Position numbers and translations under genes: made by a program. A stretch of 42,950 nucleotides of DNA from an uncultured Gammaproteobacteria bacterium (GTDB taxonomy: Bacteria > Patescibacteriota > Microgenomatia > Levybacterales > UBA12049): assembly GCA_964477485.1 (NCBI GenBank), contig CAYZEE010000003.1, forward strand, positions 1-42,950. The letters are read 5' to 3'. Of the stretch, positions 10,626 to 28,783 are shown one piece after another. The notes under the pieces were generated by a model. It was not told the DNA's origin. It made no database searches and saw nothing but the letters and a program-made list of their open reading frames with translations. Position 1 is the first letter of the stretch; the number at the start of each line of letters is the position of its first letter.

Positions 10626-10699
10626 GGCGCCTTCGTCTAGCGGTTTAGGATATCTGGTTCTCATCCAGAAGATCACGGGTTCGAATCCCGTAGGCGCTA
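10626..10699 (+). tRNA. tRNA-Glu(CTC); CCA not encoded
   Basis: Cloverleaf: acceptor GGCGCCT/AGGCGCT, D stem GTCT/GGAT, anticodon stem TCTGG/CCAGA with loop TTCTCAT, T arm ACGGG-TTCGAAT-CCCGT. Upstream TGaTATAAT at 10581-10589. Confidence 0.96.
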
Positions 10700-10876
10700 C
10701 ACAACTCATAGTATTCTACGCAACCCGAAGGCTAGACTCGTTTAGGTTGAAGCTGCTTCCTACTATTTGTTGGATTCGTTCGAAAACTGTTTCTTAATCC
10801 TGTATTGTTGAAAAATTATTCTCACATAGAACACTCTATTGAACCACGAGAAAAACATCGATGACCAGATTTGAAG

Positions 10877-12214
10877 CTATTTTTGTATGATAATCTCTCT
10901 TTGAGAAATAATAAATCGCGTTTTAATAAATGTCAGTTCTTCTTGTCTCTCCTCTGCTGTACCAATTTGTAAAACATGCATAAGATAGTTTTTTGTCATC
11001 TCCTGTTTATCTGCTGCGTTTTCAGGAATCCTATTAAACTCAGCCAAGTATCCATCAACAAATTCTTGGTGAAGTACTTGAGTTTTAAGTCTATGATACC
11101 TTTCAATATCTTCTTGAATCTTTCTATTAATGCCTGCGTGATTAAACTTAATCACATCTATCTTTGCAATAAGTTGCTTGATGAGATCTGCTTCTGTAAT
11201 ATAGGGTTCATCGCACTCATAGTCTAATGATCTTGCGCAGTGGTAGTAAACATGTTTTACAACCCTTCCATTGAGAAGTTTTCTATATTTATCCTCAGCT
11301 GTTATTCCTCCACCACATCCACCGCATTTGAAAATACTTTTGAATGGAAAGAGTTTATTCTTATATCCTTTATTCGGTTGTATTTGGAGCTGTATCTGAA
11401 CTTTGTCAAATAATTCTTTTGTAATTAAAGGGGTGTGTTTTCCTTTATACCAAGTGCCACTTCTTAGTGGAAATTCAAATTCGCCATAATAAAATGGATT
11501 TTTAAGAGTTGCATATACTTTACTTACTGCGAGTCTTTTCCCATTTCTTGTTTCAAATCCAATTCTATCAAGCCAGAGTTTTATTGTTCTTCCAGAATGC
11601 CCTTGATGCGCCATTCTTTCAAACATTTGTTTTACAAACTGTGAACGCTCTGGGTCAAGAACGATTAATTCATCAGTATGCCCATCGCCTATTTGATTTA
11701 AGTAGCCAACTGGTGCAATGCTGGGACGCCAGCCCATCAGACATTTTGCTCTCATTCCGCGTTGCACATTTACTCCTTTGTTATCATTCTCAAGCTTTGC
11801 TTGGGAACATAAAATCATCAGAAGGAATTTTTCATTTGGGCTATTGGAGAAGCTTTGCGAGTAAGTTTGAATCTTCACCAGTTTTCCCTGATCCATTAGA
11901 TCAACTACAGATCCCAAGTCTCCTGCATTACGAGAAAGCCTATCAGGTGCCCACGTGAGTATTCCATTAAATTTCTTCGACCTAACTTCTTGTAATAACT
12001 CCATGAATACAGGGCGAGTACCGGATGACTTTGCGGAGTGGCTTTCCTTTTTAACTTCTTTTATTTTGAGATTATCTCTCTTTGCTAAGGACAGCATCTC
12101 ATCAATTTGAGATTCAATTGACATTGTTTGCCGTTCATCAGATTCACTTGATTTCCTAGCATAAAGGCAATATTGAATTACTCCATTATCATGACTATCT
12201 GACTTAGTTCGCAT
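10877..12214 (-). CDS. Large serine recombinase (resolvase + recombinase + zinc-ribbon domains)
   Basis: YARKSSE catalytic Ser, SIESQ, RPVF, DRLSRNAGD, LKNPFYYG, HTPLITKELFDKVQ, FKCGGCGG...YYHC...C. Confidence 0.93.
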   Translation of the reverse strand: MRTKSDSHDNGVIQYCLYARKSSESDERQTMSIESQIDEMLSLAKRDNLKIKEVKKESHSAKSSGTRPVFMELLQEVRSKKFNGILTWAPDRLSRNAGDLGSVVDLMDQGKLVKIQTYSQSFSNSPNEKFLLMILCSQAKLENDNKGVNVQRGMRAKCLMGWRPSIAPVGYLNQIGDGHTDELIVLDPERSQFVKQMFERMAHQGHSGRTIKLWLDRIGFETRNGKRLAVSKVYATLKNPFYYGEFEFPLRSGTWYKGKHTPLITKELFDKVQIQLQIQPNKGYKNKLFPFKSIFKCGGCGGGITAEDKYRKLLNGRVVKHVYYHCARSLDYECDEPYITEADLIKQLIAKIDVIKFNHAGINRKIQEDIERYHRLKTQVLHQEFVDGYLAEFNRIPENAADKQEMTKNYLMHVLQIGTAEERQEELTFIKTRFIISQREIIIQK

Positions 12215-12319
12215 ATTATTTGTACTCTACTATTATTAACGGTAAAGTACCGCAAATAGAGGTGGAAGTCTAGTAGCAAAATGCTAGCAGAAAAAGACAA
12301 GATTCTGTATACTGCAACA

Positions 12320-12880
12320 ATGCAAAACTTTAAATATCCAGCCACTTTTGTTCCCGATCATGAAGAATCTTATACACTAAACGGAGTTGAATATACATTA
12401 CCTGCAACAACTTTAGCATTCAAAAAGTGGGAGGGTGCTAGTATAAAAAATACGTTTGGCGGAAAACCATTAGTAAATTATGATGAAATCCCAATGTTTG
12501 CAGAACTTGCAATACAACGTACTATTTTAAAAAATGGCTGGTCAGCGAGATGGGTGGAAACATATGCTTCAAAAGGGAATAATCCATATTATTTTGTTAA
12601 CTGGTTGGATGCACCATTAACTCAACAGGCAGTTGAACCATTAAATGACCTGCACCATCAAAACCTCCTAGCAAAAATAGCAGTTCAAAATGGTAATTCA
12701 TATTCAGGCTGTTGGGACATACTTGCTTGGAAAGATAAAAGAACACTATTTTTAGAATCTAAAAGATTTAAAAAAGATAGTATTCGTAATACCCAACTTC
12801 ATTGGCTAAAGGCTGCATTGGATTCAGGGTTAGCTCTGAATAATTTTCTTATTGTGCAGTGGGACTTTAAGACTACTTGA
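12320..12880 (+). CDS. Stand-alone VRR-NUC-like PD-(D/E)XK nuclease
   Basis: GCWDILAW...FLESK...DSIRNTQLHWL matches the VRR-NUC pattern. Start placed at ATG 12320 because TATACT lies 6 nt upstream (track start 12281). Confidence 0.7.
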   Translation: MQNFKYPATFVPDHEESYTLNGVEYTLPATTLAFKKWEGASIKNTFGGKPLVNYDEIPMFAELAIQRTILKNGWSARWVETYASKGNNPYYFVNWLDAPLTQQAVEPLNDLHHQNLLAKIAVQNGNSYSGCWDILAWKDKRTLFLESKRFKKDSIRNTQLHWLKAALDSGLALNNFLIVQWDFKTT

Positions 12881-12892
12881 GTGATAATTGCC

Positions 12893-14371
12893 TTATCTAT
12901 TGAATGAAAGCCCATTCCGTACAGGGGTATCAAATTCAAGCCACGTAACATTAGGTTCTGCCTTATTCAACTCTTCCATTAATTTGATACAGACCATTGT
13001 AAATGCGTCCATTAAATCATCATGCCTATATGTTCCATAATATAAAATTTGTTTTATTAATTCTTCGCATCCTTCTTCTGGAAATAATATTTTTCCATCT
13101 CTCATCCATGAACTTACCGCTTCAAGTCTTTTTTCCTTTGCAACAGTTACTCTTACATCTTCAAGCGTAATTCCCTGTTGTTCTAATTCTTGAATAACTG
13201 CCGGCTGAAAACCATTTGCTTCACAATAAAACGTCGAAGATATTCCTCCACCAATACTGTTATATAAAAGTTTAATTTGATCAAGAAGCTCTGGGAAGTC
13301 ATATTTATCATTAATTGGATATGGTTGAATAAAAATATATGGTTTTCCATCCATTTTATATGCTTTTGTTGTAACCATTGCTGTATAATCCGATCCTGTC
13401 TTTTTTGATATTGCTACATCAATACCAACTCCCGTATTTACAAGGTAATAATTTGATAACATTTGGTCGTAACGATGAATCCATTCAGGTTTGATAATTG
13501 CGCTAATTGCTGCTTGGGGGTTTAGCATGTACTCACTTTCCCAAGCTCTATCACTGGCAATATTTTGCTTTTCTTCCTCAATTATTTTTTTGTCAGGATA
13601 TCTTCCTTTCCAGGTAATTCTTCCACCTGGAGAAATAATGGGATATCTACGGACAACTCCTTTTTGTTTTTTCTCAAGAATGCGAGTAGCCAGTCTTCCA
13701 ATTAGATCATCGGGGTGAAGTTGCGTCCCAACGATAATAAAGCGAAACTTTTTTGCTTTTAATGAGTAGACATCTCTTGTGTACCAAGTAAATAATTTTT
13801 CACGACCTTCCACCGTGTTTGTGTCTTCTAGACCCTCAACGTCATCTAAAAGAATAACCTCAGGTCTTACATTTCCTTCTCTAATGCCACGAATGTTTTG
13901 TTCAACCGAGGCAACAGTAATACGCGCATCGTAATCTTTTAGATAAATAGTATATGATGACATTTCTGAATTATCTTCAGTAAATGGGCCAGCATCAGCT
14001 TTTAATAGAGAGTTATATTCTAGTTCGCGAGTGAGGTTTTTTGTAATATATTTTGCTTGCATTTGCGTTTTGGTAAAGATAAGGACAAAATGCTTTTTTT
14101 GCTTACCAAGAATTGACCAAAGAACGTAACAAAGACTAAAGATAGTTGACTTACCACATCCTCTAAACCCAAGAATAATTGAAAGGGGAATTTTATCATT
14201 TTCAGCGATCCGGAAGAACTCATAGTGAAATGAGGCAAGAGGGACATCAAAGTGATGCGATAAATATATGGCGAAAAAATAACCAATTTTTTCACTAGAT
14301 AGTCGTTTTCTTAGCTCCTGGTCATGGGCAATTTGTAGCATTTGTTCTTTTGTTAGTAGTTGTGTTTTCAT
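12893..14371 (-). CDS. Phage terminase large subunit-like protein
   Basis: Walker A GFRGCGKST, IRGIR, Walker B ILLDDVE, IVGTQLHPDDL, SEYMLNP; RNase H-like nuclease GIDVA...SDYTA, CEANGFQ, KEKR, HDDLMDA. Confidence 0.88.
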   Translation of the reverse strand: MKTQLLTKEQMLQIAHDQELRKRLSSEKIGYFFAIYLSHHFDVPLASFHYEFFRIAENDKIPLSIILGFRGCGKSTIFSLCYVLWSILGKQKKHFVLIFTKTQMQAKYITKNLTRELEYNSLLKADAGPFTEDNSEMSSYTIYLKDYDARITVASVEQNIRGIREGNVRPEVILLDDVEGLEDTNTVEGREKLFTWYTRDVYSLKAKKFRFIIVGTQLHPDDLIGRLATRILEKKQKGVVRRYPIISPGGRITWKGRYPDKKIIEEEKQNIASDRAWESEYMLNPQAAISAIIKPEWIHRYDQMLSNYYLVNTGVGIDVAISKKTGSDYTAMVTTKAYKMDGKPYIFIQPYPINDKYDFPELLDQIKLLYNSIGGGISSTFYCEANGFQPAVIQELEQQGITLEDVRVTVAKEKRLEAVSSWMRDGKILFPEEGCEELIKQILYYGTYRHDDLMDAFTMVCIKLMEELNKAEPNVTWLEFDTPVRNGLSFNR

Positions 14372-14376
14372 ATATA

Positions 14377-14769
14377 TTATTTAGATTTTTGTAGCATAGT
14401 TAATGCTTTTACGATAAGCTGCTCTTGTTCCTCGGTTAGCTTATATTCATGTTGTACATTTCCGAGTAGCTCGACACGAGTTGAATAATCTGTATGGTGA
14501 TGCTTTAGCCAAAAGATGACAGCAGTAAGTTCTCTTTCACGAATTGCTGATATTAACTGTGACTCCGCCAAGTCATTTATAAGCTGTTTTCCGTTTGCCA
14601 GCGCTTCATCGGTTTCTTTTTCAAATGCTTCATCAAGTTTTCGCCATCTGTAGTATGTTGCCCTGCTAATTCCTGTTTTCTCACAAACAATATGAACAAT
14701 TGGCGTTTTCTTAAGCATCTCAACTATTTTTTGTTTTTCTTTTTCTTGTCGATTTGTAATACTATTCAT
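14377..14769 (-). CDS. HTH protein (phBC6A51-like), putative small terminase
   Basis: HTH VCEKTGISRATYYRWRKLDEAF, DLAESQL, AVIFWLK; lies directly upstream of the TerL gene. Confidence 0.72.
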   Translation of the reverse strand: MNSITNRQEKEKQKIVEMLKKTPIVHIVCEKTGISRATYYRWRKLDEAFEKETDEALANGKQLINDLAESQLISAIRERELTAVIFWLKHHHTDYSTRVELLGNVQHEYKLTEEQEQLIVKALTMLQKSK

Positions 14770-16103
14770 GATATTTTTACTCCTTTTTTACCAGATAGAT
14801 TTTCCCAGCGTTTTTTAATCACTTCGGCATAGACAGGAGACTTTTCCATAACATAACAGCGGCGCTTCAATTTCTCAGCTGCAATAAGAGTTGAACCACT
14901 ACCACCAAATGGTTCAACAATTAAGTCTCCTCGTTTTGTTAATACTTTTATGTATGGAATTAAAATCTCAACTGGTTTAGTGCCAAACACTACTCCTTGC
15001 CCGGAGTTTTTCTCATCAGATGATCGAAATTCAATAAAATCTGTTGGTTGAGTCTTTTTACCTTTTTGGTACCCCTCCCAGTGGGGTTTTCCAGCTATTG
15101 CGTAAAGTGCTGTTTCATACTCTTCTTGTAGTCCATCAGCTTCTTGCTCAAGATTAAATGGAATGTCAGCTTTTGGTGATGCACCAACCATTGCAATATC
15201 GTGTTTTGAGAAGAACTTGTATTTTGCAGCAAAGCCTTGATGTCTGTTTGGTAAGTGCCAAACAAGCATGTTTTTTATTTTCCAGTACTTTTTCATTTCA
15301 CCCCAAATAATAGGAATATTTCGCCAGTTCTCATACACGATTATTGAGAAATTTTCTTTTTGTACCTTGGCTATATTTGCCATCCACTTCTCAGTAAAGT
15401 CAGGAGGCAGTACATCTGTTTCTAAATACTTTCTGTCTCGTTTGTACCCAAATCCTTCTGTGGGTTTACCATTTCTTTTTTTGCCATGTAAATAGTCCAG
15501 CAAATACGGCGGATCGGTAAAACACATTTCAGCTTTTTCTCCATTCATTAACTTTAACAATTCATACTCTATTGTTGAATCTCCGCACATAAGCTTACTG
15601 TCTCCCAGTTGCCATACATCACCTTTTTGGATTTCAATATTGCCAATGTGCATTTTCTTAAGTTCTTTTGCCAAATCAAATACTTCAGGCGTTTCGTCAA
15701 AACCAAATATGTGATCTAGCTCTTCGCTGCTAAATCCAACATCGTTTAAAAGAGAGGAATCAAAATCCGAAAGCAAACTCCAATCCCACTCTCCAGTATT
15801 CCTGTTAAGTCGAAGATTTAATTCCTTTTCTTTGGCTATATCTGAAATGTTGAGGTAAACAACCGGTACGTTTGAATATCCGAGATCTTTGGCAATCTTG
15901 AGCCTAAAGTGACCACCTATTACAATGTTTTTTCTGTTTGGTGCATTGTTGACAATTATTGGATCAACTAAGCCAAAGCGGGTAATGCTTTCAGTCAATT
16001 GCTTCTCCGCTTCCTTATCCCATTTTCTTGGGTTGTATGGCGCAGGGTTTAGTCCCGAAATTGCTACTTGTTGTATTTTTATGTTGTTCATATCTCTTTC
16101 CAT
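14766..16103 (-). CDS. ParB/Srx-domain fused amino-DNA methyltransferase (beta-class motif order)
   Basis: N-terminal LNPAPYNPR...SITRFGLVDPIIVN...IGGHFRL...LNRNTGEWD; GDVWQLG..KLMCGDST; FTDPPY precedes EPFGGSGSTLIAA. Start ATG 16103 has TATAAT 5 nt upstream. Confidence 0.9.
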   Translation of the reverse strand: MERDMNNIKIQQVAISGLNPAPYNPRKWDKEAEKQLTESITRFGLVDPIIVNNAPNRKNIVIGGHFRLKIAKDLGYSNVPVVYLNISDIAKEKELNLRLNRNTGEWDWSLLSDFDSSLLNDVGFSSEELDHIFGFDETPEVFDLAKELKKMHIGNIEIQKGDVWQLGDSKLMCGDSTIEYELLKLMNGEKAEMCFTDPPYLLDYLHGKKRNGKPTEGFGYKRDRKYLETDVLPPDFTEKWMANIAKVQKENFSIIVYENWRNIPIIWGEMKKYWKIKNMLVWHLPNRHQGFAAKYKFFSKHDIAMVGASPKADIPFNLEQEADGLQEEYETALYAIAGKPHWEGYQKGKKTQPTDFIEFRSSDEKNSGQGVVFGTKPVEILIPYIKVLTKRGDLIVEPFGGSGSTLIAAEKLKRRCYVMEKSPVYAEVIKKRWENLSGKKGVKIS

Positions 16104-16225
16104 ATTCAATTATATTGAGTTTTCTAATGGGACTTATACATTTTTCAAAAAGCCAATTTTTGAGTTTTGAGGCTAAAAGAAAATTTTGGTATACTTTGAT
16201 ACACTTTATAAATTAAGATTATGTA

Positions 16226-16285
16226 TTGACAAGACAAACGAGAAGTATTAAAATAGGTTAAGTAAAAATAGTTTACTATACCTAT
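16226..16285 (+). promoter_or_regulatory. sigma70 promoter of the defence operon with an overlapping inverted repeat
   Basis: TTGACA (16226-16231), 17 nt, TAAAAT (16249-16254). Inverted repeat ATAGGTTAAGTAAA-N5-TTTACTATACCTAT (16253-16285, 12/14 paired) ends at the hsdM ATG. Confidence 0.75.
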
Positions 16286-18019
16286 ATGTCATTGCCAAAT
16301 TGGATACATTCGCGATATTTAGCTCTTGCAGACCAATATAAAGAAGGAAGCTTCGGTTTTGAAGAGGCAGTGCAAGTATTGCAAAAACGCTTCGGAGACA
16401 AGGAAGATCAGGTCAAGTTGGTCATGTCTGAATTACGAAAAGCCCACTTTATTGATGTTGCCAGAAACGATGAAGATTCTCGTAAGAAAGTTTATACATT
16501 AACATCAGTATCGAATCAAAAAGAAAAAGGAAAATTAACCCGGGGTGACATCGACAGAGTTTTAAAAAAAGCTGCAGATCTTATAAGGACACGCGTCGAC
16601 TACTCATTCATCCTTTTACTTCTCTTCTACAAGCGATTCAGTGATCAATGGAACGTTGAGTACCGTAAAGCCTATCAGGAAGCGATACAAGATAAATTTT
16701 CAGATAAAGAAGCCGAAACAGAAGCAAAAAAGTCCGCCTATCACAGAATTAACATACCTGATGAGTACTCTTGGGAAGCGATTAGAAAAGATACTCTTAA
16801 GATATCCGAGAATTTTTCTCAGGCAATAAAAAGCCTTGCAGATCTCAATCCTACACTCAAAGAAACTTTTCAGCAGTTTGATTTTTCTGACTTTACTCGC
16901 AATCCGGAGAACAACGAGATTCTTCGTCAGCTTGTAGAGCTATTTAGCTCATACTCCTTCGAAAATGTATCGCCGGATATTTTGGGAGATGCTTATGAAT
17001 GGATACTTCGATATTTCGCTCCACAAAAGGCAAAAGAAGGTGAAGTTTTCACGCCCAGGGAAGTTATTCAATTAATGGTTGAACTTCTCGATCCCCAAGA
17101 GGGAGAAAGCGTATATGATCCGGCCGCGGGATCATCCGGAATGCTTATAGCAGCATATAAATATGTTGAAGAGAAGCATTCCAAAGCAAAAGCAGATTCT
17201 TTGTATTTGTATGGTCAGGAACAAAACCCAAAAACTCTCTCGCTTGCAAAAATGAATCTTCTTATTCACGACATTACAAATGGGCTTATGGCTCAGGGTG
17301 ACACACTAAGATTTCCAAAATTTAAGGATGGCGACACATATAAAAGATTCGTGCATGTTTTGGCAAATCCCCCCTGGAATCAAGATGGATATGATGAGCA
17401 AATCTTAAAACAATCAGAATATTGGCGTGACAGATTTCCTTATGGATTTACGTCCATGCAATCAGCAGATTTTGCATGGTTGCAGCATATGATAGCTTCG
17501 AGTAAGAAAAAAGTTGCGGTTATATTAGATACTGGAGCGATAACAAGAGGTGGTAAGGAAAAAGCCATAAGACAAAAGATTGTCGAGATGGACCTTATTG
17601 AAGCGGTCATACTCTTGCCGGAAAAACTATTTTATAACACAACAGCTCCTGGAATAATCTTAGTTATAAATAAGAAAAAAAGTGAAATTCTTAAGCATAA
17701 AATAAAATTTATCAACGCTTCATTAGAATTTACTGCAGGCAAGCCACTAAATACACTTAGTGAGAAGAATATTGAGAGCATTTTAGATGCCTTTAACTCA
17801 GATAAAGATGAAAAAAATATTAGTAAAATCATTTCCTTAAAAAAAATTAAGAAGGAAAATTTTAATTTGTCACCATCAGTATATGTTGACCTTACAAAAA
17901 CAAAAGTACATCGTGAAAAAGAAGAAATAATGTCTGAATTAGAAGTTTTAGAAGAAGAAAGCCAGAAAGCATATCAAAATATTAAAAAGCTTTTTAGCAA
18001 TAAGAACAATGAAAAATAG
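16286..18019 (+). CDS. hsdM: Type I R-M methyltransferase subunit with an N-terminal winged-helix extension
   Basis: KAADLIR, DILGDAYEWIL, GEVFTPREV, YDPAAGSSGML, YGQE, LANPPWN. The first ~75 aa look like a wHTH. Confidence 0.95.
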   Translation: MSLPNWIHSRYLALADQYKEGSFGFEEAVQVLQKRFGDKEDQVKLVMSELRKAHFIDVARNDEDSRKKVYTLTSVSNQKEKGKLTRGDIDRVLKKAADLIRTRVDYSFILLLLFYKRFSDQWNVEYRKAYQEAIQDKFSDKEAETEAKKSAYHRINIPDEYSWEAIRKDTLKISENFSQAIKSLADLNPTLKETFQQFDFSDFTRNPENNEILRQLVELFSSYSFENVSPDILGDAYEWILRYFAPQKAKEGEVFTPREVIQLMVELLDPQEGESVYDPAAGSSGMLIAAYKYVEEKHSKAKADSLYLYGQEQNPKTLSLAKMNLLIHDITNGLMAQGDTLRFPKFKDGDTYKRFVHVLANPPWNQDGYDEQILKQSEYWRDRFPYGFTSMQSADFAWLQHMIASSKKKVAVILDTGAITRGGKEKAIRQKIVEMDLIEAVILLPEKLFYNTTAPGIILVINKKKSEILKHKIKFINASLEFTAGKPLNTLSEKNIESILDAFNSDKDEKNISKIISLKKIKKENFNLSPSVYVDLTKTKVHREKEEIMSELEVLEEESQKAYQNIKKLFSNKNNEK

Positions 18020-19178
18020 CAACTTAAATACTAAAAAAAAATTTACCTTACTTGGCGAACTTATTACACTGCGGAAAGGAGTAAAGCCAGATTTAGTGAA
18101 GTCTAATGGGATTAACTGCTTGCCTTACCTATCTGCCGATTATTTTAGGACAGGAATCGCCCAAAGCTATGTAGACATAGAAGAATCTAACCGCTCTGTA
18201 AAACTTAATAAAGAAGATGTGGCGCTTATCTGGGATGGATCTAATGCAGGCGAGGTTTTTAGTGGATTAGAAGGTGTTTTATCATCAACTATGGTGAAGG
18301 TAGAGCCAACAAATGGAATGCTGAAGCCTCTTCTTTATTACTTTTTGAAAACACAGTTTAATACATTAAATAGTAAAACTACTGGAACGACTATTCCGCA
18401 TGTTAGCCGTGATGCATTAACAAAACTACAATTGTATGTACCTAATTCTTCAGATCAGCAAAAGATAGTTTCAATCCTATCAGAAATAGAAAAGGCAATA
18501 ACCACTGAAAATAAACTTTTAGCCACATATAAAGAGTTAAAAATGACTTTAATGTCGACGCTTTTTACTCAAAATGACGGTGGTTTCATAACGCGCAAAT
18601 TGTCAGAAATAGCAAAAATTGAAAGAGGTAAATTCGCGCATCGGCCTAGAAATGATCCCGAATTTTACGGAGGCAATATACCTTTTATACAAACCGGGGA
18701 CGTAACGTCTTCAAATGGTTATGTAAAAAACTATTCACAGACACTAAACGAAAAGGGATTGGCAGTTAGCAGAATGTTTTCAAAGGGAACAATTGTCATA
18801 ACAATTGCTGCCAATATTGGATACACAGGGATATTAGAGTTTGAAAGCGCGTTTCCAGACAGTTTAGTCGGTATTTCTCCAAATGTTAACCTGATTGATA
18901 CTGAATATCTAAATTATTATTTACAGTCGCAGCAGCCCGTAATGGACAGTCTTGCACCTAGAGGCACTCAGAAGAATATTAATATTCAATTCTTGCTCCC
19001 CTGGCCAGTCCCTGTAACCACAATGGAAAAACAAAAAAACGCAGTAGCTCTGCTTAAAGATGTCGATAGAAAAATTACGCTTTGCCAAAAAAAGAAAATT
19101 GCATATCATGAGTTATTTAATTCCGTTTCATACTCACTATTAATAAAAGGGGAGGATTTACAAATTTACAATATCTGA
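18009..19178 (+). CDS. hsdS: Type I R-M specificity subunit
   Basis: Two TRDs (GTTIPHVS; GNIPFIQTGDV...GTQKNIN), each followed by a helical spacer (QQKIVSIL...); lies between hsdM and hsdR. Confidence 0.92.
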   Translation: MKNSNLNTKKKFTLLGELITLRKGVKPDLVKSNGINCLPYLSADYFRTGIAQSYVDIEESNRSVKLNKEDVALIWDGSNAGEVFSGLEGVLSSTMVKVEPTNGMLKPLLYYFLKTQFNTLNSKTTGTTIPHVSRDALTKLQLYVPNSSDQQKIVSILSEIEKAITTENKLLATYKELKMTLMSTLFTQNDGGFITRKLSEIAKIERGKFAHRPRNDPEFYGGNIPFIQTGDVTSSNGYVKNYSQTLNEKGLAVSRMFSKGTIVITIAANIGYTGILEFESAFPDSLVGISPNVNLIDTEYLNYYLQSQQPVMDSLAPRGTQKNINIQFLLPWPVPVTTMEKQKNAVALLKDVDRKITLCQKKKIAYHELFNSVSYSLLIKGEDLQIYNI

Positions 19179-19179
19179 T

Positions 19180-22100: not shown

Positions 22101-22194
22101 GCTTAAGGCAGAGTTAAATGTTTCCATTGAGGATCTAGATAAAGCATACAGCCTTATCTTAGATATACTACTTAATCATGAAAAGTGGAATTAA
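19180..22194 (+). CDS. hsdR: Type I R-M restriction subunit
   Basis: RLDTVLFVNGIPLVDMEYK nuclease motif, HWQGSGKT, VVDR, DEVHRSQYG, FTGTP, MLLTGFD, QAIARTNR. Confidence 0.96.
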   Translation: MSKMLEQKLVEDYFVEELQKRGWSFVRPENLDRTSFKDPLLLSNLKKAILKLNPDLGIGDEEMKVILDQLTLTSSGQEGCKKVLHLIKYGIPVKFEKERVIKNVKLIDFGNVQENELIVSRQVIFYGTEEARLDTVLFVNGIPLVDMEYKNPASKDENWQKAYKQIKNYEKIAPELYKYMQLGVAVGAVAKYFPIVPWLDEVDIYEWKEESMDEVDSTLALFEPNKFLDILRNFLFYREQRKYVTKVVARYMQYRAANSIVNRVNDNLHGKDERNKGLIWHWQGSGKTLTMIFAAHKLYFDRLLEAPTVFFVVDRIELETQIFEELAQLKLNIAPEVIENIGELKAWVKADGYKGKRGLAVVLIHKFQPEEMRDVNKELESIQGQTISSRKNVIVFLDEVHRSQYGLMAAQMKKMLKGAFFFGFTGTPISKDDRDTYESFGYPLQKERYLDKYFMDDALRDKFTLRILYQPRLDKVHLQKELLQGFLDAEFEDIDQADKVYVEKKVSRRVTQAKVFLENPQRIDDIAKNIAEHYKENLDGKFKAMVVAGSRKACVLYKKALDKYLPLEYSELVVTFTDGDEQILKDYKAEMQKKYPGKDDNDIRKEIKASFKEESLPKIIIVTDMLLTGFDVPILQTLYLDKPLKEHRLLQAIARTNRPYKDVKPAGLVIDYVGILSDIEKAYKSYYEEPEIKDALFKYESLVDEFISLLKELDVIFKEIPHTYERNVFFEAFDGLKNDEDVEKTFTERYWTLRKIFEMLGSNEIKVDYLDEFNWYSAIYNYYLRLKNQTEDKNELVNRFLSKSLKFIHRSTQIQEIKNDLPVLEFNNHYLDSIKKAKMSAGEKAANMVFTLERLVLVDQVKDPIYKSLQDRVEKLVEEWRHKAENYENVYQESLDIFETINAEQKKRNELGLSLLEYSIFTELAPWVKDQTLLVSLSKELNGNIKQYMLPEWQDQPALRKKVEEGLRTFLRRKLKAELNVSIEDLDKAYSLILDILLNHEKWN

Positions 22195-22705
22195 ATATCG
22201 ACATATTGTAAGACCAGTTAAGTATCCGCGTATTGAATTTAAGAGCGGAGAGCTTGAAGTCATTGCTCCAAAAAACGCTGACATTCCTTCTTTGCTAATA
22301 AGGCACCATACATGGGTTAATGAAAAGCTGAGGTTTATAGAAAAAAATAGCAGAGTTAAGAAAAAAGAACTAGAAGAAAGAACAGATAAAGAGCTGGATA
22401 GTTACATTAGGCGTTGCATTAGAAGAGCTGAAAAGTTGCTAAACGTCCAACATTCCTACTATCGATTTCGAACTATGAAAACCAAATGGGCCACTTGTAG
22501 TTCCCGAGGAGTAATTACCTACAACAGAATTGTGACTTACCTTCCGAATGAATTGATCTGGTATATAACGCTTCATGAGATGGCACACCTAATAGTAGTC
22601 GGGCATAATAAAAAGTTCTGGCACTTAGTAAGCAAGCATATAAAAGGCCCCGAAGAATACGAAAGAAAATTATATTCGTATTGGTTCACAATATATAAGA
22701 ATTAA
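22178..22705 (+). CDS. YgjP/DUF45-like zinc metallohydrolase
   Basis: MKTKWATCS, YITLHEMAHL...HNKKFW; this is the family's usual position downstream of hsdR. Confidence 0.88.
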   Translation: MKSGIKYRHIVRPVKYPRIEFKSGELEVIAPKNADIPSLLIRHHTWVNEKLRFIEKNSRVKKKELEERTDKELDSYIRRCIRRAEKLLNVQHSYYRFRTMKTKWATCSSRGVITYNRIVTYLPNELIWYITLHEMAHLIVVGHNKKFWHLVSKHIKGPEEYERKLYSYWFTIYKN

Positions 22706-22733
22706 CAAGGGCTAATTTTTTTCACAAAAACAT

Positions 22734-23807
22734 ATGAGTAAAAATAGTTGGCAATTTCTTGAAGAATATTTAGAAAAAATAGCAAAAAGGTGCGGATTTC
22801 GTTATTTACGTGCCTCAACCGGAGACAGCCAAATGGGTGGAGATGGTGGAGGAACTTTAATAATTGAAAAGTATGAATTTTATTGGAAGTTTGAGTGTAA
22901 ACAAAGAGTTAAAAGTATTGATAAACCAATAGTGTTGAACGAAATATCAGATAAAATACTTGAGATTATGTCTCAGGATAGAACCAATTGGCCTGATGTG
23001 TTATGCCTTTTTACTCCACATCATACGCTTTATGATCAATTAGAGAGAAAAATTAATGCCTTGGAAAAGAACAAGAGAATTCCTTTTAAGGTTGTTATTT
23101 GGCATTATAAATATTTAATAGAAGTTTTACATATCCTCTTGGAAGATATCGATATTAAAAAGATATACCCGGATCTTCAACTAATTTACCCCAGTGGACA
23201 AACAGATAAAGATTTACTTTTAGCCAAATTCATTGCAGAAATTGAAAACAAGACGAAAGAAGGACATCTAATAAAAAATTCGTATATTCATGCGGAGGAT
23301 CTTTCATATAAGACCATTAAATTAGTAGTAAATGTAGTTCAAGTAGAAGAAGATGGCGAAAATAAAAAATTATATGAAATCAATATGCTTAATGAAAAGT
23401 TTCTGATTAAGCCTGAAGACATTGATAATATTGCAATTAAAAAAGTACCAATCGCAAAACATCAATCGGTAAATTCTACCTCTAGCGTGACGAATGTAAA
23501 CGATTCTACTATTAGAACTGAAGAGATTGGAGAAATTGAGGTGGTTGACTGGAATCAAAGAAATAAAGATATTGACAATAAGAGAAGACAAATAATAGAT
23601 TTATTTAAAAAATTAAAAATAGAAGGTAAAACGGAAAATCTATATGATCTACTAAAAAAACAGGCAATTGATCAAAAAATTATCGTTAAAGTAATTAGCA
23701 ATGATTTTTTACTAAATTTGGTTCCCTTTGTTTATCTAAATGAGAAAAATTTCGAAACTCAAAATCAAATTAGTTTTGTAGTAATGGAGGATAAAATATA
23801 TGAGTAA
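22734..23807 (+). CDS. Putative Mrr-like PD-(D/E)XK endonuclease with an unknown C-terminal region
   Basis: WQFLEE...GF...QMGGDGGG...WKFECK fits a restriction-endonuclease fold; the remainder is unrecognised. Confidence 0.55.
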   Translation: MSKNSWQFLEEYLEKIAKRCGFRYLRASTGDSQMGGDGGGTLIIEKYEFYWKFECKQRVKSIDKPIVLNEISDKILEIMSQDRTNWPDVLCLFTPHHTLYDQLERKINALEKNKRIPFKVVIWHYKYLIEVLHILLEDIDIKKIYPDLQLIYPSGQTDKDLLLAKFIAEIENKTKEGHLIKNSYIHAEDLSYKTIKLVVNVVQVEEDGENKKLYEINMLNEKFLIKPEDIDNIAIKKVPIAKHQSVNSTSSVTNVNDSTIRTEEIGEIEVVDWNQRNKDIDNKRRQIIDLFKKLKIEGKTENLYDLLKKQAIDQKIIVKVISNDFLLNLVPFVYLNEKNFETQNQISFVVMEDKIYE

Positions 23808-26800
23808 TCGCGGAGGACAAGCAACACAAAGTGGAATTCATTCACAGAATTGGGCAGCAATGTCACTTTTCTTGCAACATATTAGTCGTCCTGATTTTAG
23901 ATATATTGGTTTTGAAGCAGATAAATTAGAAGATTTTTACTTAGTATTTGAGAGCGATAAAAAAATTATTTGCGAATCTAAAGCTTATAAAGTTAGCTTT
24001 CCTGAATTTAAAAAAATCGTCGGTAACATAATAAAACATGGACAAGTAACTCAAGAGGATGAAATATTAATCATTTGTGAGCAAGCCGATAAAAATCTAA
24101 AAACTCTAATTGAAAACTTTAATTACTATGATGGCAAAACTGTAGAAAAAATTTCAAAAGAAAAGAAACTAACTTCTGAAGAATTAAAACTTCTTCCACA
24201 AATACGATTTTGGGAGGTATCCCAGGACATTTCAAGGAAAACTGCAGAGTTACTTATTTCCCAATTATTAAGAGTTTGGGTTCCTACTCATAAAATTGAG
24301 GAAATTGTTAGGGACTTATTAGAAAAAGAAGTATATCAAGGTTCGCAAAGAGGAACAACTTTATCTAGGGAAGATTTCATAAAAAAGCTTGATGATAAAA
24401 AGCGACTAATTTTTGAAGATGCAAGGTACGAAAAAGATAAAGAAAAAAAAGAACAGGAACTAAAACAATATATAAATGATTTAAAAAATCCTAATAGTCC
24501 ACAATGGTCTAATAACTCATTAAGTATACTTTCTGATAAGCCAGACCAACATTACTGGGTACTCAAGATGCTGGGAGAAGAAAAAGACTTAAGCCTAAAA
24601 GAATGGGATCCGTTATGGGTAATGAGTACTCAAGGAGCATTTTCATTAGAAGTTTTTAATATTTTTAAAAAGAACACTTCAACTCAAGAAAATCAAAATT
24701 ACTTCATTAAGTTTGCCCCTAAACTTATAGAAAATAATTCAAATATGTTTCATGAAGAATTTATAAAAACGGATATAGTCGATATTTGCGGAAATATAAT
24801 ACAAAGCACTCGCCAATATGACAGTGAAGTCTTTGAATTAATCCAAAGACTATTTGAGCCTAGTATAAGTAAATACTTTTATGCAAAACACACAAGAGAT
24901 AATCGTCACGAATGGGAGCAAATTAGTCTTTTGTTGCTAAACTTATATAAGGCTTCAGAAGATAAAACATTAAAACAAAAAATTGTAGACTATATCTTTG
25001 ATAAGTTTAACCTTGTTGCTGATGATGGACAATATTGGCACTATACTCCATCAACAATTTTCACCATTATCCAATTGCACTTTAACGAAGATCCTCAAGA
25101 AGGAATTATAGAATTGACTAAGTTATTTTCTGAACAATTAGACAAGTTTTATAAAAAATTCGGTAAAAAATTGGCGTTCAAGGGATGGGAACATATGGGA
25201 AGCGGTATTTCACAAATGGGAAATAATTTTTCCATTCAAGACAGAATGTTTGTAGAAGCAATTTTAAAACCTTTATTTAGGAGCCTTTACGAAAAGAATA
25301 AAGATAATGCTTTAAATATCATAGCAGAATGTATCTCTCGAAAAACTAATAATGTCTCAAGAGAAAAGCCAGATTTCATCAATCGTTCTGTTCTGCCAGT
25401 CTTATTTAGCGAATACAAAGAGGAAACTTACGGTAGCTTAGCTTTTGAGATTTTAAGTGATTTTATAAAAATGAGAAAAGGAATTCCTTGGAAAGTAGAT
25501 TTAATTTTCCAAGAATTGAGAGGAGATTATACTGATGAACAAAAATGGGCTCTTGTAAAAGTGAGCCTTGATGAATATAACAATTTACCCGCTAATGTCT
25601 TTGTTGAGCAAATAGTTTCAAGCTTGGGAGCAAAAGGCAACAAAGATGCCTTGAGTGTAATTGCTGAATGGGTAAAAAACCCTGAGTATAATCGCAGACA
25701 AATAATTGGTTCTTTTAGTGTGATGGATAATATATCTAAACTCTTGGATAACAAGGACATCTTCGATGAAGCCGTAGATATATACAAAAATTATATTTTT
25801 GCTGATAACTTTATAACTAAAGACAACGACTGGGAAACATGGGATGTGGCAAAAGTATCATGCAAAATTCTTATAACTAACGAAAAGGTTGGAATTGAGA
25901 TACTCCAAAACATTAATTCATCGAAGATACTTACCCCAAACCAACAAACGTTAATTACCTGTGCAATAAATGACATTCCTGAGGACAATAAAGAATTGCT
26001 ATTAAAGGTGTTCCAGAAGTTTCTAGATCCGTTACTAAAAGATTTAGGATATGACATTTCTAAGATTGAGGAACGAATCACAAAGAGACATTGCCGTGAG
26101 CAAATAGTTCAATTTGCAGACAAATTGGCAAAGGCCAGATGCTTCAATGAAGCGTTGTCAGTAGTTAATGTATTTATCAATGACTCAGACCCAATACTCG
26201 AAAACTATGACGATGATAAAAAGGGAAACTTTAATTATCATAAGAAAGTCATTGAGGGTGATGATAACCCAACAATTAATACTGTTAGAGGTTTTTGTGC
26301 TTGGGTGTTACAAAAATTTGCTTCTCTCTACGGAAGGGACTATATTCCACAAATTTTGCCTTTAGTCAAGAAACTTTCTCAAGATCCTAACTATTATGTT
26401 CGAGTGCAGGCATGCGTTCCGTTATTAGAACTTGTAAAAAACAGAAATACAGTTCTTCCAGATAATTCTAAAGTGCGATTTGTATCAGTTGAAACAGCCC
26501 AGGCAATTGAAGATATCGCATTTGAAATGCTCAATAATAAGGAAAATCATAAACTTCCATCGGTCATGCAACATATAGCGATGGTTTTTACTTACATGAG
26601 GACTATTCCTCAAGAGAAAGCTTACCAAGTTTTAGAAACCTTCTTAATAGATGAATACCCCAAAAAGGATAATCAAAGAAAACATTCGACCTATTTAGCC
26701 GATGTATTAAGTGAAGCGGCCCCCTTATACATCTTTTTTGCAGAATATAGAGAAGATGCTTTCAAGGATTGGCCTAAGGATTGGGCAAAGTTAGGAAAGT

Positions 26801-27396
26801 TTAACAGCAAGCCATTTAAAGACCTATTGACGAAGCTAGTGAGAGATGGGTCTTCTGAAATAAAAGCCATTTTTGCTTGGCAATTTGCTAGATTACCTGA
26901 TGAAGTAAAAACAACACCAAAATTTGATGAAACGATTGGAATCTCCGCACGATATTTAGAAGAAATGTCACAAACATATGATCATGAAACATTTAATAAT
27001 ATTTATCGTTTTGTCGAAGATTATGTAGATTCACATTATGCAATCTGTATTAATCTTTGGAAAAAATGCATCATTACCGAGAGCAAATATTTTACTGATA
27101 ACTTTTCAAAAGATAAGTTTATGGATATGTATTGGTGGCCTTTTTTCTACAACGGTAAAATTCTACTAAAAATTGCAGAGCAAGAGGGTGTTGAGGAATT
27201 CCTAAAATGGTTCAAAATACTAGTAGATTATCCTATTGAGTTATTGGTCGCTAATGATTTAGATATTGCTGTAGAGTATCTTACCGGATTAAAAACAAAT
27301 AAGGAAGAGATTGAATATCTATTTAAAAGGTTAATTGAGAGAAATTCTAAATATTACACCGATAAACAAAATTGGCTAAATCAAAATAATAAATGA
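23800..27396 (+). CDS. Large protein: Cap4/DUF4297-like dsDNA nuclease N-terminus plus alpha-helical (HEAT-like) body
   Basis: GGQATQSGIHSQNWAA...IGFE...LEDF...ICESK is a Cap4-type pattern; LSQDPNYYVRVQACVPLLEL is HEAT-like; no Walker A motif seen. Confidence 0.6.
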   Translation: MSNRGGQATQSGIHSQNWAAMSLFLQHISRPDFRYIGFEADKLEDFYLVFESDKKIICESKAYKVSFPEFKKIVGNIIKHGQVTQEDEILIICEQADKNLKTLIENFNYYDGKTVEKISKEKKLTSEELKLLPQIRFWEVSQDISRKTAELLISQLLRVWVPTHKIEEIVRDLLEKEVYQGSQRGTTLSREDFIKKLDDKKRLIFEDARYEKDKEKKEQELKQYINDLKNPNSPQWSNNSLSILSDKPDQHYWVLKMLGEEKDLSLKEWDPLWVMSTQGAFSLEVFNIFKKNTSTQENQNYFIKFAPKLIENNSNMFHEEFIKTDIVDICGNIIQSTRQYDSEVFELIQRLFEPSISKYFYAKHTRDNRHEWEQISLLLLNLYKASEDKTLKQKIVDYIFDKFNLVADDGQYWHYTPSTIFTIIQLHFNEDPQEGIIELTKLFSEQLDKFYKKFGKKLAFKGWEHMGSGISQMGNNFSIQDRMFVEAILKPLFRSLYEKNKDNALNIIAECISRKTNNVSREKPDFINRSVLPVLFSEYKEETYGSLAFEILSDFIKMRKGIPWKVDLIFQELRGDYTDEQKWALVKVSLDEYNNLPANVFVEQIVSSLGAKGNKDALSVIAEWVKNPEYNRRQIIGSFSVMDNISKLLDNKDIFDEAVDIYKNYIFADNFITKDNDWETWDVAKVSCKILITNEKVGIEILQNINSSKILTPNQQTLITCAINDIPEDNKELLLKVFQKFLDPLLKDLGYDISKIEERITKRHCREQIVQFADKLAKARCFNEALSVVNVFINDSDPILENYDDDKKGNFNYHKKVIEGDDNPTINTVRGFCAWVLQKFASLYGRDYIPQILPLVKKLSQDPNYYVRVQACVPLLELVKNRNTVLPDNSKVRFVSVETAQAIEDIAFEMLNNKENHKLPSVMQHIAMVFTYMRTIPQEKAYQVLETFLIDEYPKKDNQRKHSTYLADVLSEAAPLYIFFAEYREDAFKDWPKDWAKLGKFNSKPFKDLLTKLVRDGSSEIKAIFAWQFARLPDEVKTTPKFDETIGISARYLEEMSQTYDHETFNNIYRFVEDYVDSHYAICINLWKKCIITESKYFTDNFSKDKFMDMYWWPFFYNGKILLKIAEQEGVEEFLKWFKILVDYPIELLVANDLDIAVEYLTGLKTNKEEIEYLFKRLIERNSKYYTDKQNWLNQNNK

Positions 27397-27929
27397 GATT
27401 GGAAATAGTAGAGAAATTAGATAAGCTTCTTTTAAAACATATACCTTTCAATGAGGAGTGTGAAGTTGTTTATTTCATGGTTGAAATAAGAAAAATCATG
27501 GAGCATGATAACGATTCAAAATATAAACTTCTTCGATTTTTTTGTGATTGGACTGTTCACACAAAAAAAGATAGGAGTATGAGTGGAATCATAGACATTG
27601 TAAACGAAATTGATCGCCTTATTTCTAGTGTTGATAAAATTACTACTCTACAAAATGAACAAATTCTTAAATTTTTAGAAATGAATGAGTTGAGAAAAGA
27701 ACTTTCGCAATTTCTTACTTCCCATTCCCTACCAAGTGATTTATGCAAAGATGATCACAATTGGTCAACATTTGTTGATATACTTGCACAAGTTCTTTCG
27801 GGTCAACCAATCCTAAATCCAATAGAGACAATTGTATCTATAGAGATATTCTCAAACTCTTTAGGGAGTTCTATAACTGTGGATTTCGGAACAGGTAGAG
27901 GCTCTGCAACAGCAGGGTTTGGAAAATAG
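27393..27929 (+). CDS. Hypothetical protein, possibly HEPN-like
   Basis: ATGA overlap with the upstream gene; helical; VEIRK and LRFFCDWTVH resemble HEPN E...R-x-H motifs only loosely. Confidence 0.5.
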   Translation: MRLEIVEKLDKLLLKHIPFNEECEVVYFMVEIRKIMEHDNDSKYKLLRFFCDWTVHTKKDRSMSGIIDIVNEIDRLISSVDKITTLQNEQILKFLEMNELRKELSQFLTSHSLPSDLCKDDHNWSTFVDILAQVLSGQPILNPIETIVSIEIFSNSLGSSITVDFGTGRGSATAGFGK

Positions 27930-27935
27930 TACAAA

Positions 27936-28511
27936 CTAAGTTATCAACCTTAATACAAACGGTACGATTCTTGTTGTAGGTAATTTATATTTCCATGCCA
28001 CCTTGTAATACCACCTAAGATATAGTTTCTGTAATACTTCGCGCTGATGCTCAAAAATAGTGTCATTATCAATATTTACTAGCTTATTCCCGACTGCTCG
28101 TTCTATAGCGATACTTAATAGCGCTGATTCGTCATCATAGTCAGGGTTGAAGAAATAACTTGACCTATTTATTTTCGCAGCGTAAAGCGTAACCAGTTCG
28201 TTTTCAATCGCAAGATAAACACTTATTTTCTCTCTATCAGGCATTTTCTGGTTGAATGATGGGATTTTCTCTAATACAATTGATTCCCATAGGGGTTTAT
28301 AGTCGAGATTTAACGCACGAGATAATTTTCCAATTTCAGGTATGGCATTTTTCTTGAAATATTGCTTCCGTAGTTCTCTTCCTGTTAGCTTACTATCAAG
28401 TTTATACTTTTTCTTGATGCCCTGAGTTATGCGATAGTTTGCATAAGATCGGACAAATAGAGTGAGTCTTACCTTCTTAAGAGTTAATCGGGCTTTGATT
28501 TGTTCTGCCAT
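27936..28511 (-). CDS. Hypothetical basic protein, probable island backbone gene
   Basis: 191-aa ORF with a K/R-rich N-terminus, co-oriented with the recombinase and terminase genes, near the right end of the island. Confidence 0.65.
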   Translation of the reverse strand: MAEQIKARLTLKKVRLTLFVRSYANYRITQGIKKKYKLDSKLTGRELRKQYFKKNAIPEIGKLSRALNLDYKPLWESIVLEKIPSFNQKMPDREKISVYLAIENELVTLYAAKINRSSYFFNPDYDDESALLSIAIERAVGNKLVNIDNDTIFEHQREVLQKLYLRWYYKVAWKYKLPTTRIVPFVLRLIT

Positions 28512-28563
28512 AAATCGGGCAGAATTAGCCTATTTTACAATAAACAGCCTGGATAATTAAAGA

Positions 28564-28628
28564 CTATATCAATCTATATCAGAAGATTTTGAGAACCTCT
28601 TTTTTATAGTGTCTCATTTGTCTCATTT
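28564..28628. repeat. Two short tandem direct repeats
   Basis: CTATATCA at 28564 and 28574; GTCTCATTT at 28611 and 28620. Confidence 0.6.
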
Positions 28629-28673
28629 AGCCTCGGCATGATACAATCCAAAAAGAGGGTTATAAGGCCTAAA

Positions 28674-28699
28674 GGGTTCCAGACCCGTATGGCTCACAA
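28674..28699 (+). repeat. Degenerate copy of the tRNA-Glu 3' end (candidate att site)
   Basis: GGGTTCcagaCCCGTAtgGCT-CACAA versus GGGTTCgaatCCCGTAggcGCTaCACAA at 10677-10704. Confidence 0.5.
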
Positions 28700-28700
28700 A

Positions 28701-28774
28701 GTCGAGGCAAGTCTATAACCTAAGCCGTCACGTTCTCAACATAAAGATCGCGGGTTCGATTCCCGCAGGCGGTA
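28701..28774 (+). pseudogene. Decayed tRNA-Glu(CTC)
   Basis: Intact T arm GCGGG-TTCGATT-CCCGC and anticodon loop TTCTCAA; 35/43 identity to the 3' half of the intact tRNA; anticodon stem (TCACG/CATAA), D arm and acceptor stem are broken. Confidence 0.75.
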
Positions 28775-28783
28775 TACTTCGAC

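Follow-up and report, generated by a model that had tools for sequence, protein, structure and literature searches.

A Patescibacteria island with both terminase subunits and no recognisable virion genes: a candidate helper-dependent satellite and defence shuttle

The window analysed here, a stretch of 42,950 nucleotides (GenBank assembly GCA_964477485.1, contig CAYZEE010000003.1), is one entire contig (C3) of a 1.27-Mb genome in 147 contigs that is 99.4% complete and belongs to a member of the Patescibacteria (candidate phyla radiation, CPR), among whose relatives genome size ranges from 0.6 to 1.9 Mb. Within it we find an island, placed by comparison with a related locus at 10700-28699 (~18.0 kb) and adjoining a tRNA-Glu(CTC) gene, that encodes a terminase large subunit (TerL), a putative small subunit (TerS), a DNA methyltransferase, a large serine recombinase (LSR) and anti-phage genes, and in which no virion gene is recognisable. 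The same core recurs in many Patescibacteria, and we propose that the island is a helper-dependent, terminase-only phage satellite that doubles as a defence shuttle, a reading to which we give a probability of about 0.55. On the minus strand the island encodes:

10877-12214, minus strand: LSR, 445 aa
12893-14371, minus strand: TerL, 492 aa, open reading frame (ORF) intact
14377-14769, minus strand: TerS-like helix-turn-helix (HTH) protein, 130 aa
14766-16109, minus strand: ParB_N domain fused to an N6/N4 DNA methyltransferase (N6_N4_Mtase; ParB-MTase), 447 aa
27936-28511, minus strand: orf191, the first gene inside the far end, with an all-helical model

The LSR combines the resolvase catalytic domain (Pfam Resolvase, 5e-20), the recombinase domain (Recombinase, 1.1e-13) and the zinc ribbon (Zn_ribbon_recom, 3.6e-7) and matches the integrase family phrog_95 (2.3e-59). 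TerL matches phrog_38 at 1.3e-79, and its Pfam Terminase_6C match, at 21.9 bits, falls below the 22.6 cut-off. The ParB-MTase is recognised by Pfam and by phrog_498 (8.7e-81), and its PADLOC matches are to type II and orphan methyltransferase models. It overlaps the HTH gene by 4 nt, and 5 nt separate the HTH gene from TerL. Thus the original prediction, made from the letters and ORFs of this DNA, was right about the genes and their strands and about the tight coupling of the three central genes. It had also recognised no virion, lysis, replication or relaxase genes, and our searches agree: portal, capsid, tail, lysis, primase and relaxase families gave no match among the 13 island ORFs in Pfam or the nine compared with PHROGs, and the only helicase domains are those of HsdR.

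TerS and TerL are a textbook pair, and the HTH protein, encoded directly before TerL, matches small-terminase PHROGs at ~1e-6. Its AlphaFold model (predicted local distance difference test score, pLDDT, 90; 61-row alignment) has the Sf6 small terminase as best structural match (Z 8.0, root-mean-square deviation 4.3, 84 residues aligned), followed by 2ao9 (Z 6.5), presumably a terminase-like protein of a Bacillus prophage, and the NV1 small terminase (Z 5.4), with unrelated TetR-type rows at 4.6 or less. Small terminases came out on top only in this second structural alignment; Foldseek on the same model was weak (E 0.26), and a PDB profile search with the HTH alignment returned nothing under E 0.33. 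Because Z values near 8 are common among helical proteins, the fold comparison lends moderate support to the assignment as a small terminase.

The core is not confined to the window. A scan of IMG/VR with the window's TerL as the single query protein gave 12 pattern matches, none of which was confirmed, so that a TerL alignment (A1) was needed; with it we found 229 TerL relatives in IMG/VR and at least 553 confirmed relatives among at least 599 pattern matches in species-representative genomes. Among the matches listed, titles are nearly all of Patescibacteria, including Levyi-, Berkel-, Pacei-, Dojka- and Saccharibacteria and many other CPR. Counts here and below are not de-duplicated unless stated: loci L107, L108, L123, L133 and L138 repeat L012, L013, L014, L015 and L019, and several of those from IMG/VR are either identical or on a common contig (L033/L034, L048/L050, L067/L069, L071/L072 and others). 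Of 61 related genomes, counting that of the window, 8 contain TerL relatives; the window's genome has a second copy on contig C11, with a TerL about 43-44% identical, and a single contig of genome G046 has three. Among 401 genomes sampled from the window's class, searches found an element-type TerL in 25 and a related portal in four, both counts including the unpublished genome G127.

Gene order is kept as well. The window's own genome and its relatives supply 10 loci, all with the order ParB-MTase, HTH gene, TerL, and six of them have an LSR of the same cluster within 20 kb. When these (the window and nine further genome loci) are joined by 80 IMG/VR loci, 58 of the resulting 90 have the HTH-type small subunit; 57 of the 58 lack a portal, and 38 of those 57 have an LSR. 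The genome loci were counted in the best 80 of the at least 553 species-representative relatives, where TerL was found in 77, ParB-MTase in 77, the HTH gene in 74 and an LSR in 50 (48 of the 64 in which 3 kb or more follow TerL), with no portal and no capsid gene in any. Five element-bearing IMG/VR contigs of 33-56 kb, searched over their full length, likewise gave no portal. The LSR starts no more than 300 nt from the TerL stop at 18 genome and 17 IMG/VR loci, and the minimal unit is therefore ParB-MTase, TerS, TerL and LSR, a core of ~6 kb compared with 18 kb in the window's copy. The original prediction had proposed to ask whether the backbone recurs without structural genes and with variable cargo, as it does here, and had named as the contrary outcome that homologous backbones occur only within complete prophages, whereas just one of the 58 HTH-type loci (L089) has a portal.

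Around this core the elements vary. Three extras are frequent, with 21 occurrences apiece among the 80 genome loci: a divergent S24/LexA-like repressor, a Cro-like HTH protein and a Sie-like protein with an oligonucleotide/oligosaccharide-binding (OB) fold. A gene upstream of ParB-MTase lies on the same strand in 80 of 106 loci; we rejected it as a core gene because it is scattered over many unrelated clusters, the largest with 21 members, of which profile comparison linked two alone, weakly, and of which the c17 cluster has no Pfam match. Nor does orf191 belong to the backbone, where it had been placed at first, since it recurs in merely two other genomes among 170 loci (at the same end position, in L014 and L015). 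It has 82 homologues, all unnamed or 'hypothetical' and from Patescibacteria where a title is given, and a confident all-helical model (pLDDT 83); no match was found in Pfam, PHROGs or PADLOC, among PDB sequences or by fold (best E 0.48).

Real phages make up 23 of the 90 loci. In these, the genes after TerL encode a portal joined to a Mu F domain (PF04860, 2.1e-65), then a protease/scaffold, an HK97 capsid (PF05065) and adaptors. In 22 of the 23 the small subunit is of another kind, and none has an LSR. Five phage records were examined, two with terminal repeats and two rated 100% complete (34.6 and 36.1 kb); none of the five has an LSR. In a TerL tree of 80 rows, from which split TerLs and ORFs under 430 aa were left out, the phage TerLs form one clade of 27 rows (Shimodaira-Hasegawa approximate likelihood ratio test, SH-aLRT, 100). 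The 53 element-type TerLs in the tree come from 52 HTH loci and from L019, where the start of the locus truncates the HTH gene; 52 of them fall outside the phage clade in one group, on a branch with SH-aLRT 88 that is drawn open, and that of L087 falls beside the phage clade. On this tree, the portal-bearing phages form a TerL lineage separate from the elements. In the phage L089, two small ORFs stand between the ParB-MTase/HTH/TerL module and the portal; as it carries the module ahead of a portal, the module does function in a virion context. No close cultured phage relative was found for the window's TerL, since tblastn against 50,697 phage records returned 364 records, all below 60% identity and those listed at 21-26%.

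The packaging motor of the elements is conserved at its catalytic columns. Its ATPase and nuclease columns, which we take to be Walker A and B motifs and the acidic residues of an RNase H-like nuclease, are invariant in alignment A1, and the window's TerL keeps GKST and DD-E as well as the acidic positions 318, 384 and 451-455. Ratios of nonsynonymous to synonymous rates (dN/dS) among element TerLs are 0.012-0.059 (Nei-Gojobori; 5 of 14 pairs with dS unsaturated), which shows purifying selection. In some loci TerL is read as two consecutive ORFs (L023, L026, L027, L031, L035 and L093, and likewise L103, L131, L139, L149 and L151). The two ORFs of L131, of 530 and 483 aa, sum to more than one TerL, which suggests an insertion, such as an intein or intron, rather than simple decay.

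The limits of the island, and the features by which we define them, are as follows:

10626-10700, plus strand: tRNA-Glu(CTC) (ARAGORN; Rfam tRNA, 62.3 bits), whose 3' end abuts the island and forms the host side of the LSR-proximal junction
10700-10704, no strand assigned: CACAA, LSR-proximal junction and putative crossover patch, identical to the pentamer at the far junction
10705-10876, minus strand: terminal non-coding stretch from the LSR stop codon to the junction, alignable with L014
28512-28699, minus strand: conserved terminal cis region (alignment with L014 and L015; motif scan)
28601-28632, minus strand: block B, two tandem AATGAGACA repeats and an A-rich tract
28674-28697, minus strand: block A, partly palindromic
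28695-28699, minus strand: CACAA of the far junction, matching the pentamer at 10700-10704
28732-28777, plus strand: fragment resembling the 3' half of tRNA-Glu, 46 nt, 80% identical to 10657-10702 (repeat family D4), 33 nt outside the island

Similarity to L014, whose LSR is 86% identical to that of the window, ends at 10700-10704 and at 28695-28699, each of which reads CACAA, and for this reason we place the island at 10700-28699. Of the limits first proposed, 10677-28699, the end stands and the start, which lies inside the tRNA gene, is better set at 10700. Crossover would have occurred in or adjoining the pentamer, matching the very short core expected of a serine recombinase. The flanking genes are of ordinary host type, with MarR, HlyD and MFS to the left and DUF167, Lon, MgtE and Nramp to the right. 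The 46-nt fragment covers the anticodon loop to the acceptor end of tRNA-Glu and is not called a tRNA by ARAGORN or Rfam. As an island boundary it was ruled out, since the comparison with L014 puts it outside the island, and no tRNA-half repeat lies at the far end of 11 other tRNA-adjacent loci, so that it is no feature of the family; it is probably a relic of an earlier event and may be the scar of a prior integration at the same tRNA.

Proximity to tRNA genes is itself found elsewhere in the family. Among 80 LSRs with room, 12 have a tRNA gene (13 tRNAs in total) at a distance of 95-262 nt past the LSR stop and in every case on the opposite strand; these amount to 11 distinct places, with tRNAs for Glu, Asn, Gln, Asp or Ser (for example L012, which L107 repeats in this count, L020, L036, L044, L052, L069, L104 with two tRNAs, L151, L164 and L166). 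Serine integrases are not generally known for targeting the 3' ends of tRNAs. Movement between hosts is indicated by L016 (genome G015) and L017 (G046), which come from different families: their TerLs differ by dN 0.023 and dS 0.54, and their HTH genes by dN 0.30. The near-identical TerL suggests recent horizontal transfer with shuffling of modules. The two elements that reside together in the window's genome (window 12893-16109; C11:423-5136) are mosaic as well, with identities of 83% for ParB-MTase, 67% for the HTH protein, 57% for the LSR and the low value given above for TerL, which in other element pairs is usually the slowest-evolving gene. The same genome contains at least 10 further LSR homologues, mostly on short contigs (C137, C47, C82, C97, C17, C45, C106, C39 and C89), and several extra methyltransferase genes; either this load is unusually high for a genome of 1.27 Mb, or part of the short contigs could stem from bin contamination, rated at 4.75%.

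The far end shows conservation too. A profile of it (nhmmer) gave 29 matches in 27 of 170 loci, every one on the TerL-sense strand, and the matches with mapped gene context lie upstream of ParB-MTase, except for a weak one in L115. In the source metagenome, other organisms have contigs that match 28601-28634 alone and differ to either side of it. The ends of the element are therefore defined and common to the family, and the long plus-strand cargo lies between them. A separate observation concerns L188, an IMG/VR contig of 26,245 bases with an exact repeat of period 9,117 bases (0 mismatches over 5,363 bases). Its repeat unit comprises the far-end motif and two ORFs, ParB-MTase, HTH gene and a TerL truncated to 401 aa, continues with PfkB-like, ribonucleotide-reductase and NUDIX genes and has no LSR; the repeat may reflect a circle that the assembly went round more than once, or else a concatemer or an artefact.

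Between these ends, the original prediction had seen plus-strand cargo in two slots and had read it as defence. Both points hold, the slots being 12281-12880 and 16286-27929:

12281-12880, plus strand: 199-aa ORF in the slot between TerL and LSR (VRR_NUC 21.9 bits, below the 23.8 cut-off; no PHROG or PADLOC match)
16286-18019, plus strand: hsdM (N6_Mtase, 1.5e-98)
18009-19178, plus strand: hsdS (Methylase_S, 1.1e-35)
19180-22194, plus strand: hsdR (HSDR_N, SWI2_SNF2)
22178-22705, plus strand: YgjP-like metallopeptidase (YgjP-like, 1.4e-27)
22734-23807, plus strand: 357-aa ORF, no family
23800-27396, plus strand: 1198-aa ORF, no family
27393-27929, plus strand: 178-aa ORF, weak match to a PHROG of unknown function

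HsdM, HsdS and HsdR together make up a type I restriction-modification (R-M) system (16286-22705 with the peptidase). For the cassette of 357-, 1198- and 178-aa ORFs we found no Pfam, PHROG or PADLOC family apart from that weak match, and for the 1198-aa ORF the Atlas yielded nothing but 'hypothetical protein' clusters. G+C falls to 0.29-0.30 at 23-25 kb, within the cassette, which is a candidate for a so far unrecognised defence system. Elsewhere in the family, seven of eight large cargo proteins match PADLOC families; the cargo there includes Avs4 (full length, 1979 bits), PDC-M54A, a PglX-like methyltransferase, a Mokosh/Hhe-like helicase, a type III-like enzyme and a type IIG R-M enzyme with an adjoining SNF2/PLD helicase. 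An hsdM gene is present in eight genome and nine IMG/VR loci and a reverse transcriptase in three and five, respectively, and Sie-like genes are among the extras already mentioned.

How might such an element spread? To our knowledge, large terminases act solely as motors on portal-bearing procapsids. Searches with PF04860, PF05065 and custom hidden Markov models (HMMs) found no portal, capsid or protease in the 99.4%-complete genome; with no portal in cis or elsewhere in the genome, piracy of a helper phage is therefore the simplest mechanism. The element would lie integrated, here at the 3' end of tRNA-Glu, until infection by a helper phage of the related HK97-type lineage, or alternatively SOS induction in relatives with the S24/LexA-like repressor, led to expression of the core operon and to excision by the LSR. 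Its own TerS would then bind an element-specific site, for which the repeat-bearing far end is a candidate, and its own TerL would pump the DNA into procapsids made by the helper. The methyltransferase would pre-methylate the DNA against restriction in the next host, where the LSR would integrate the element. The two internal slots would hold exchangeable anti-phage systems, here the type I R-M system and the three-gene cassette. Gene content, recurrence, the lack of recognisable virion genes, selection on TerL and defence cargo are observed; helper dependence, excision, a packaging (pac) site and packaging are the steps that we infer.

Several observations weigh against this scheme. No helper phage can be named, and no encapsidated, circular or empty-site form was seen: the island is present in three DNA sequencing runs of one study, two of which may be its source (no RNA sequencing run containing it is listed), the contigs of these runs hold no empty-site or circle junction, and an exact search for the right flank among metagenome contigs gave no match. 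Terminal repeats were absent from all 160 contig loci. The far-end motif did not occur in the examined parts of phage genomes, and mimicry of a helper site is therefore without support. The core has no replication gene, unlike those of phage-inducible chromosomal islands (PICIs), P4 and PICI-like elements (PLEs), which leaves the supply of copies for packaging unexplained. The window's copy also lacks an S24-type repressor or Cro-like gene. Five island ORFs of unassigned function could hide a divergent structural or replication protein, and the eight cargo proteins compared with PADLOC were picked by size and so form a biased sample.

A further point of this kind concerns the window's TerL. 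Of 102 columns that are the same in 90% or more of 131 element TerLs, it departs from the family in 25, the most of all 131 (median 3, 90th percentile 8, maximum 25), and A68G, S72C, D180G, N216T and D411A flank the Walker and nuclease motifs. The description of the backbone genes as intact thus holds for their ORFs and needs qualifying for TerL, which is unusually divergent. By contrast with these 25 deviations, the window's LSR has none at 67 family-conserved columns, and its ParB-MTase and HTH genes have none at theirs. The TerL of L101, from another assembly, is 76% identical to that of the window and shares 11 of the 25 deviations; between the two, the proportion of nonsynonymous differences (pN) is 0.132 and that of synonymous differences (pS) 0.610, with dN/dS ~0.12 after hand correction. 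The shared deviations, and pN far under pS, indicate that the divergence is not free decay. The window's TerL thus belongs to a divergent but constrained sub-lineage, which may be adapted to a different portal.

Three other explanations have to be set beside helper-dependent packaging. The best of them, which we nevertheless consider unlikely, is that TerS, TerL and ParB-MTase mainly sabotage packaging by an infecting phage, by competing for its procapsids or cutting its concatemers, with the LSR merely moving the cassette between sites and the element spreading by some other route, such as natural transformation. The elements do sit among defence genes and carry them, PMC9618062 discusses satellite small terminases as interference genes, and neither a replication module nor an encapsidated form was seen. 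No PADLOC model matches the window's TerL, however, and a full, catalytically conserved motor and nuclease under strong purifying selection is more than interference needs; the near-identical TerL in different families requires efficient horizontal transfer. Interference and transfer are also compatible, and known satellites do both.

A decayed prophage, that is, a temperate phage that has lost its structural, lysis and replication genes and whose backbone was kept by chance or through the methyltransferase, is distinctly less probable again. It would fit the occurrence of the ParB-MTase/HTH/TerL module in a real phage (L089), the classification of some element contigs as provirus by IMG/VR, the rank of the window's TerL as the most divergent of 131 and the TerLs split into two ORFs. 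Against this, dozens of independent loci share the minimal architecture with no structural gene, and neither structural or lysis genes nor their remnants lie by the terminase (57 of 58 HTH-type loci portal-free; 0 of 80 genome loci with portal or capsid). The element TerLs fall outside the phage clade rather than scattered within it, an LSR directly follows TerL in 35 loci, and the far end is conserved. The dN/dS test on TerL, which the original prediction had put forward as a check, gave purifying selection in the five pairs with unsaturated dS (0.012-0.059), and in the window's own sub-lineage pN is far below pS. The data exclude a one-off decayed prophage, and the satellite-like reading that had been preferred to it at the outset is supported, all the runnable checks put forward with it having turned out in its favour. 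Together, the loci show a family of mobile elements that is long-lived, has no capsid and retains a functional packaging motor.

Cells of Patescibacteria are attached to host cells, which, along with the variable first gene of the operon and the want of a known helper, could favour a terminase serving another route of DNA transfer or processing, or virion genes located elsewhere as in gene transfer agents (GTAs), but this is the least probable of the three, given that the nearly complete genome has no portal, capsid or protease, that large terminases are generally known only as portal-docked motors and that related phages with matching portal and capsid genes exist.

Phage biology in the Patescibacteria is almost unknown. 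A broader claim that follows from the satellite reading, and one we hold tentatively at slightly under even odds, is that the elements may constitute a new, phylum-wide class of 'terminase-only' satellites, with both motor subunits, neither capsid nor replication genes and serine integration often by tRNAs, which would serve as a main vehicle of anti-phage defence systems in Patescibacteria and whose conserved, repeat-bearing end would be the packaging site. They would then be the phylum's first satellites to be described; we found no published description of such an element in the literature, where a gene map in a supplement could have escaped us. PMC12366544 states that a single phage of the Patescibacteria has been described and that the defence systems recognised in the phylum are few. 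A family found in 25 of 401 genomes of one class, with at least 553 species-representative matches, would give a handle on the phages of this group and would explain how Avs4, R-M systems and reverse transcriptases move among reduced genomes. Its compact serine integrases, some by tRNA genes, may also be of practical interest.

Among known systems, the island can be compared first with PICIs, including the staphylococcal pathogenicity islands (SaPIs), whose core, according to PMC10085698, consists of an integrase (tyrosine and serine types being treated as exchangeable), AlpA-, MerR- or Stl-like regulation, a primase-replicase and a small terminase. Like these, the island is small and integrated, encodes an integrase and a small terminase of its own with which packaging would be redirected, carries accessory or defence cargo and has no recognisable virion genes. 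Unlike them, the island has an LSR as its integrase, adds its own TerL and a ParB-methyltransferase and resides in Patescibacteria, and no gene for redirection of capsid size was found. The 13 island ORFs include no AlpA, MerR or Stl-like regulator, and Pfam and PHROGs reveal no primase, replicase or helicase other than HsdR, with five ORFs unassigned. [quoted passage not shown] Temperate phages with serine integrases, such as L089, have the same ParB-methylase/TerS/TerL module in the same order, which in L089 stands ahead of portal, protease and HK97 capsid; the element, in contrast, stops after TerL, continues with integrase or cargo and has a TerL of a different clade. Finally, capsid-forming PICIs (cfPICIs; PMC10085698) and the Streptomyces satellites MulchRoom and MiniFlayer (PMC10690885) encode both a small and a large terminase, as does the island, and, according to these sources, also capsid, portal, protease and head-tail adaptors, none of which was found in the island or the 80 genome loci. 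On the satellite reading, the element would thus supply both terminase subunits and stand between PICIs with TerS only and those that form capsids, filling a missing step between the two.

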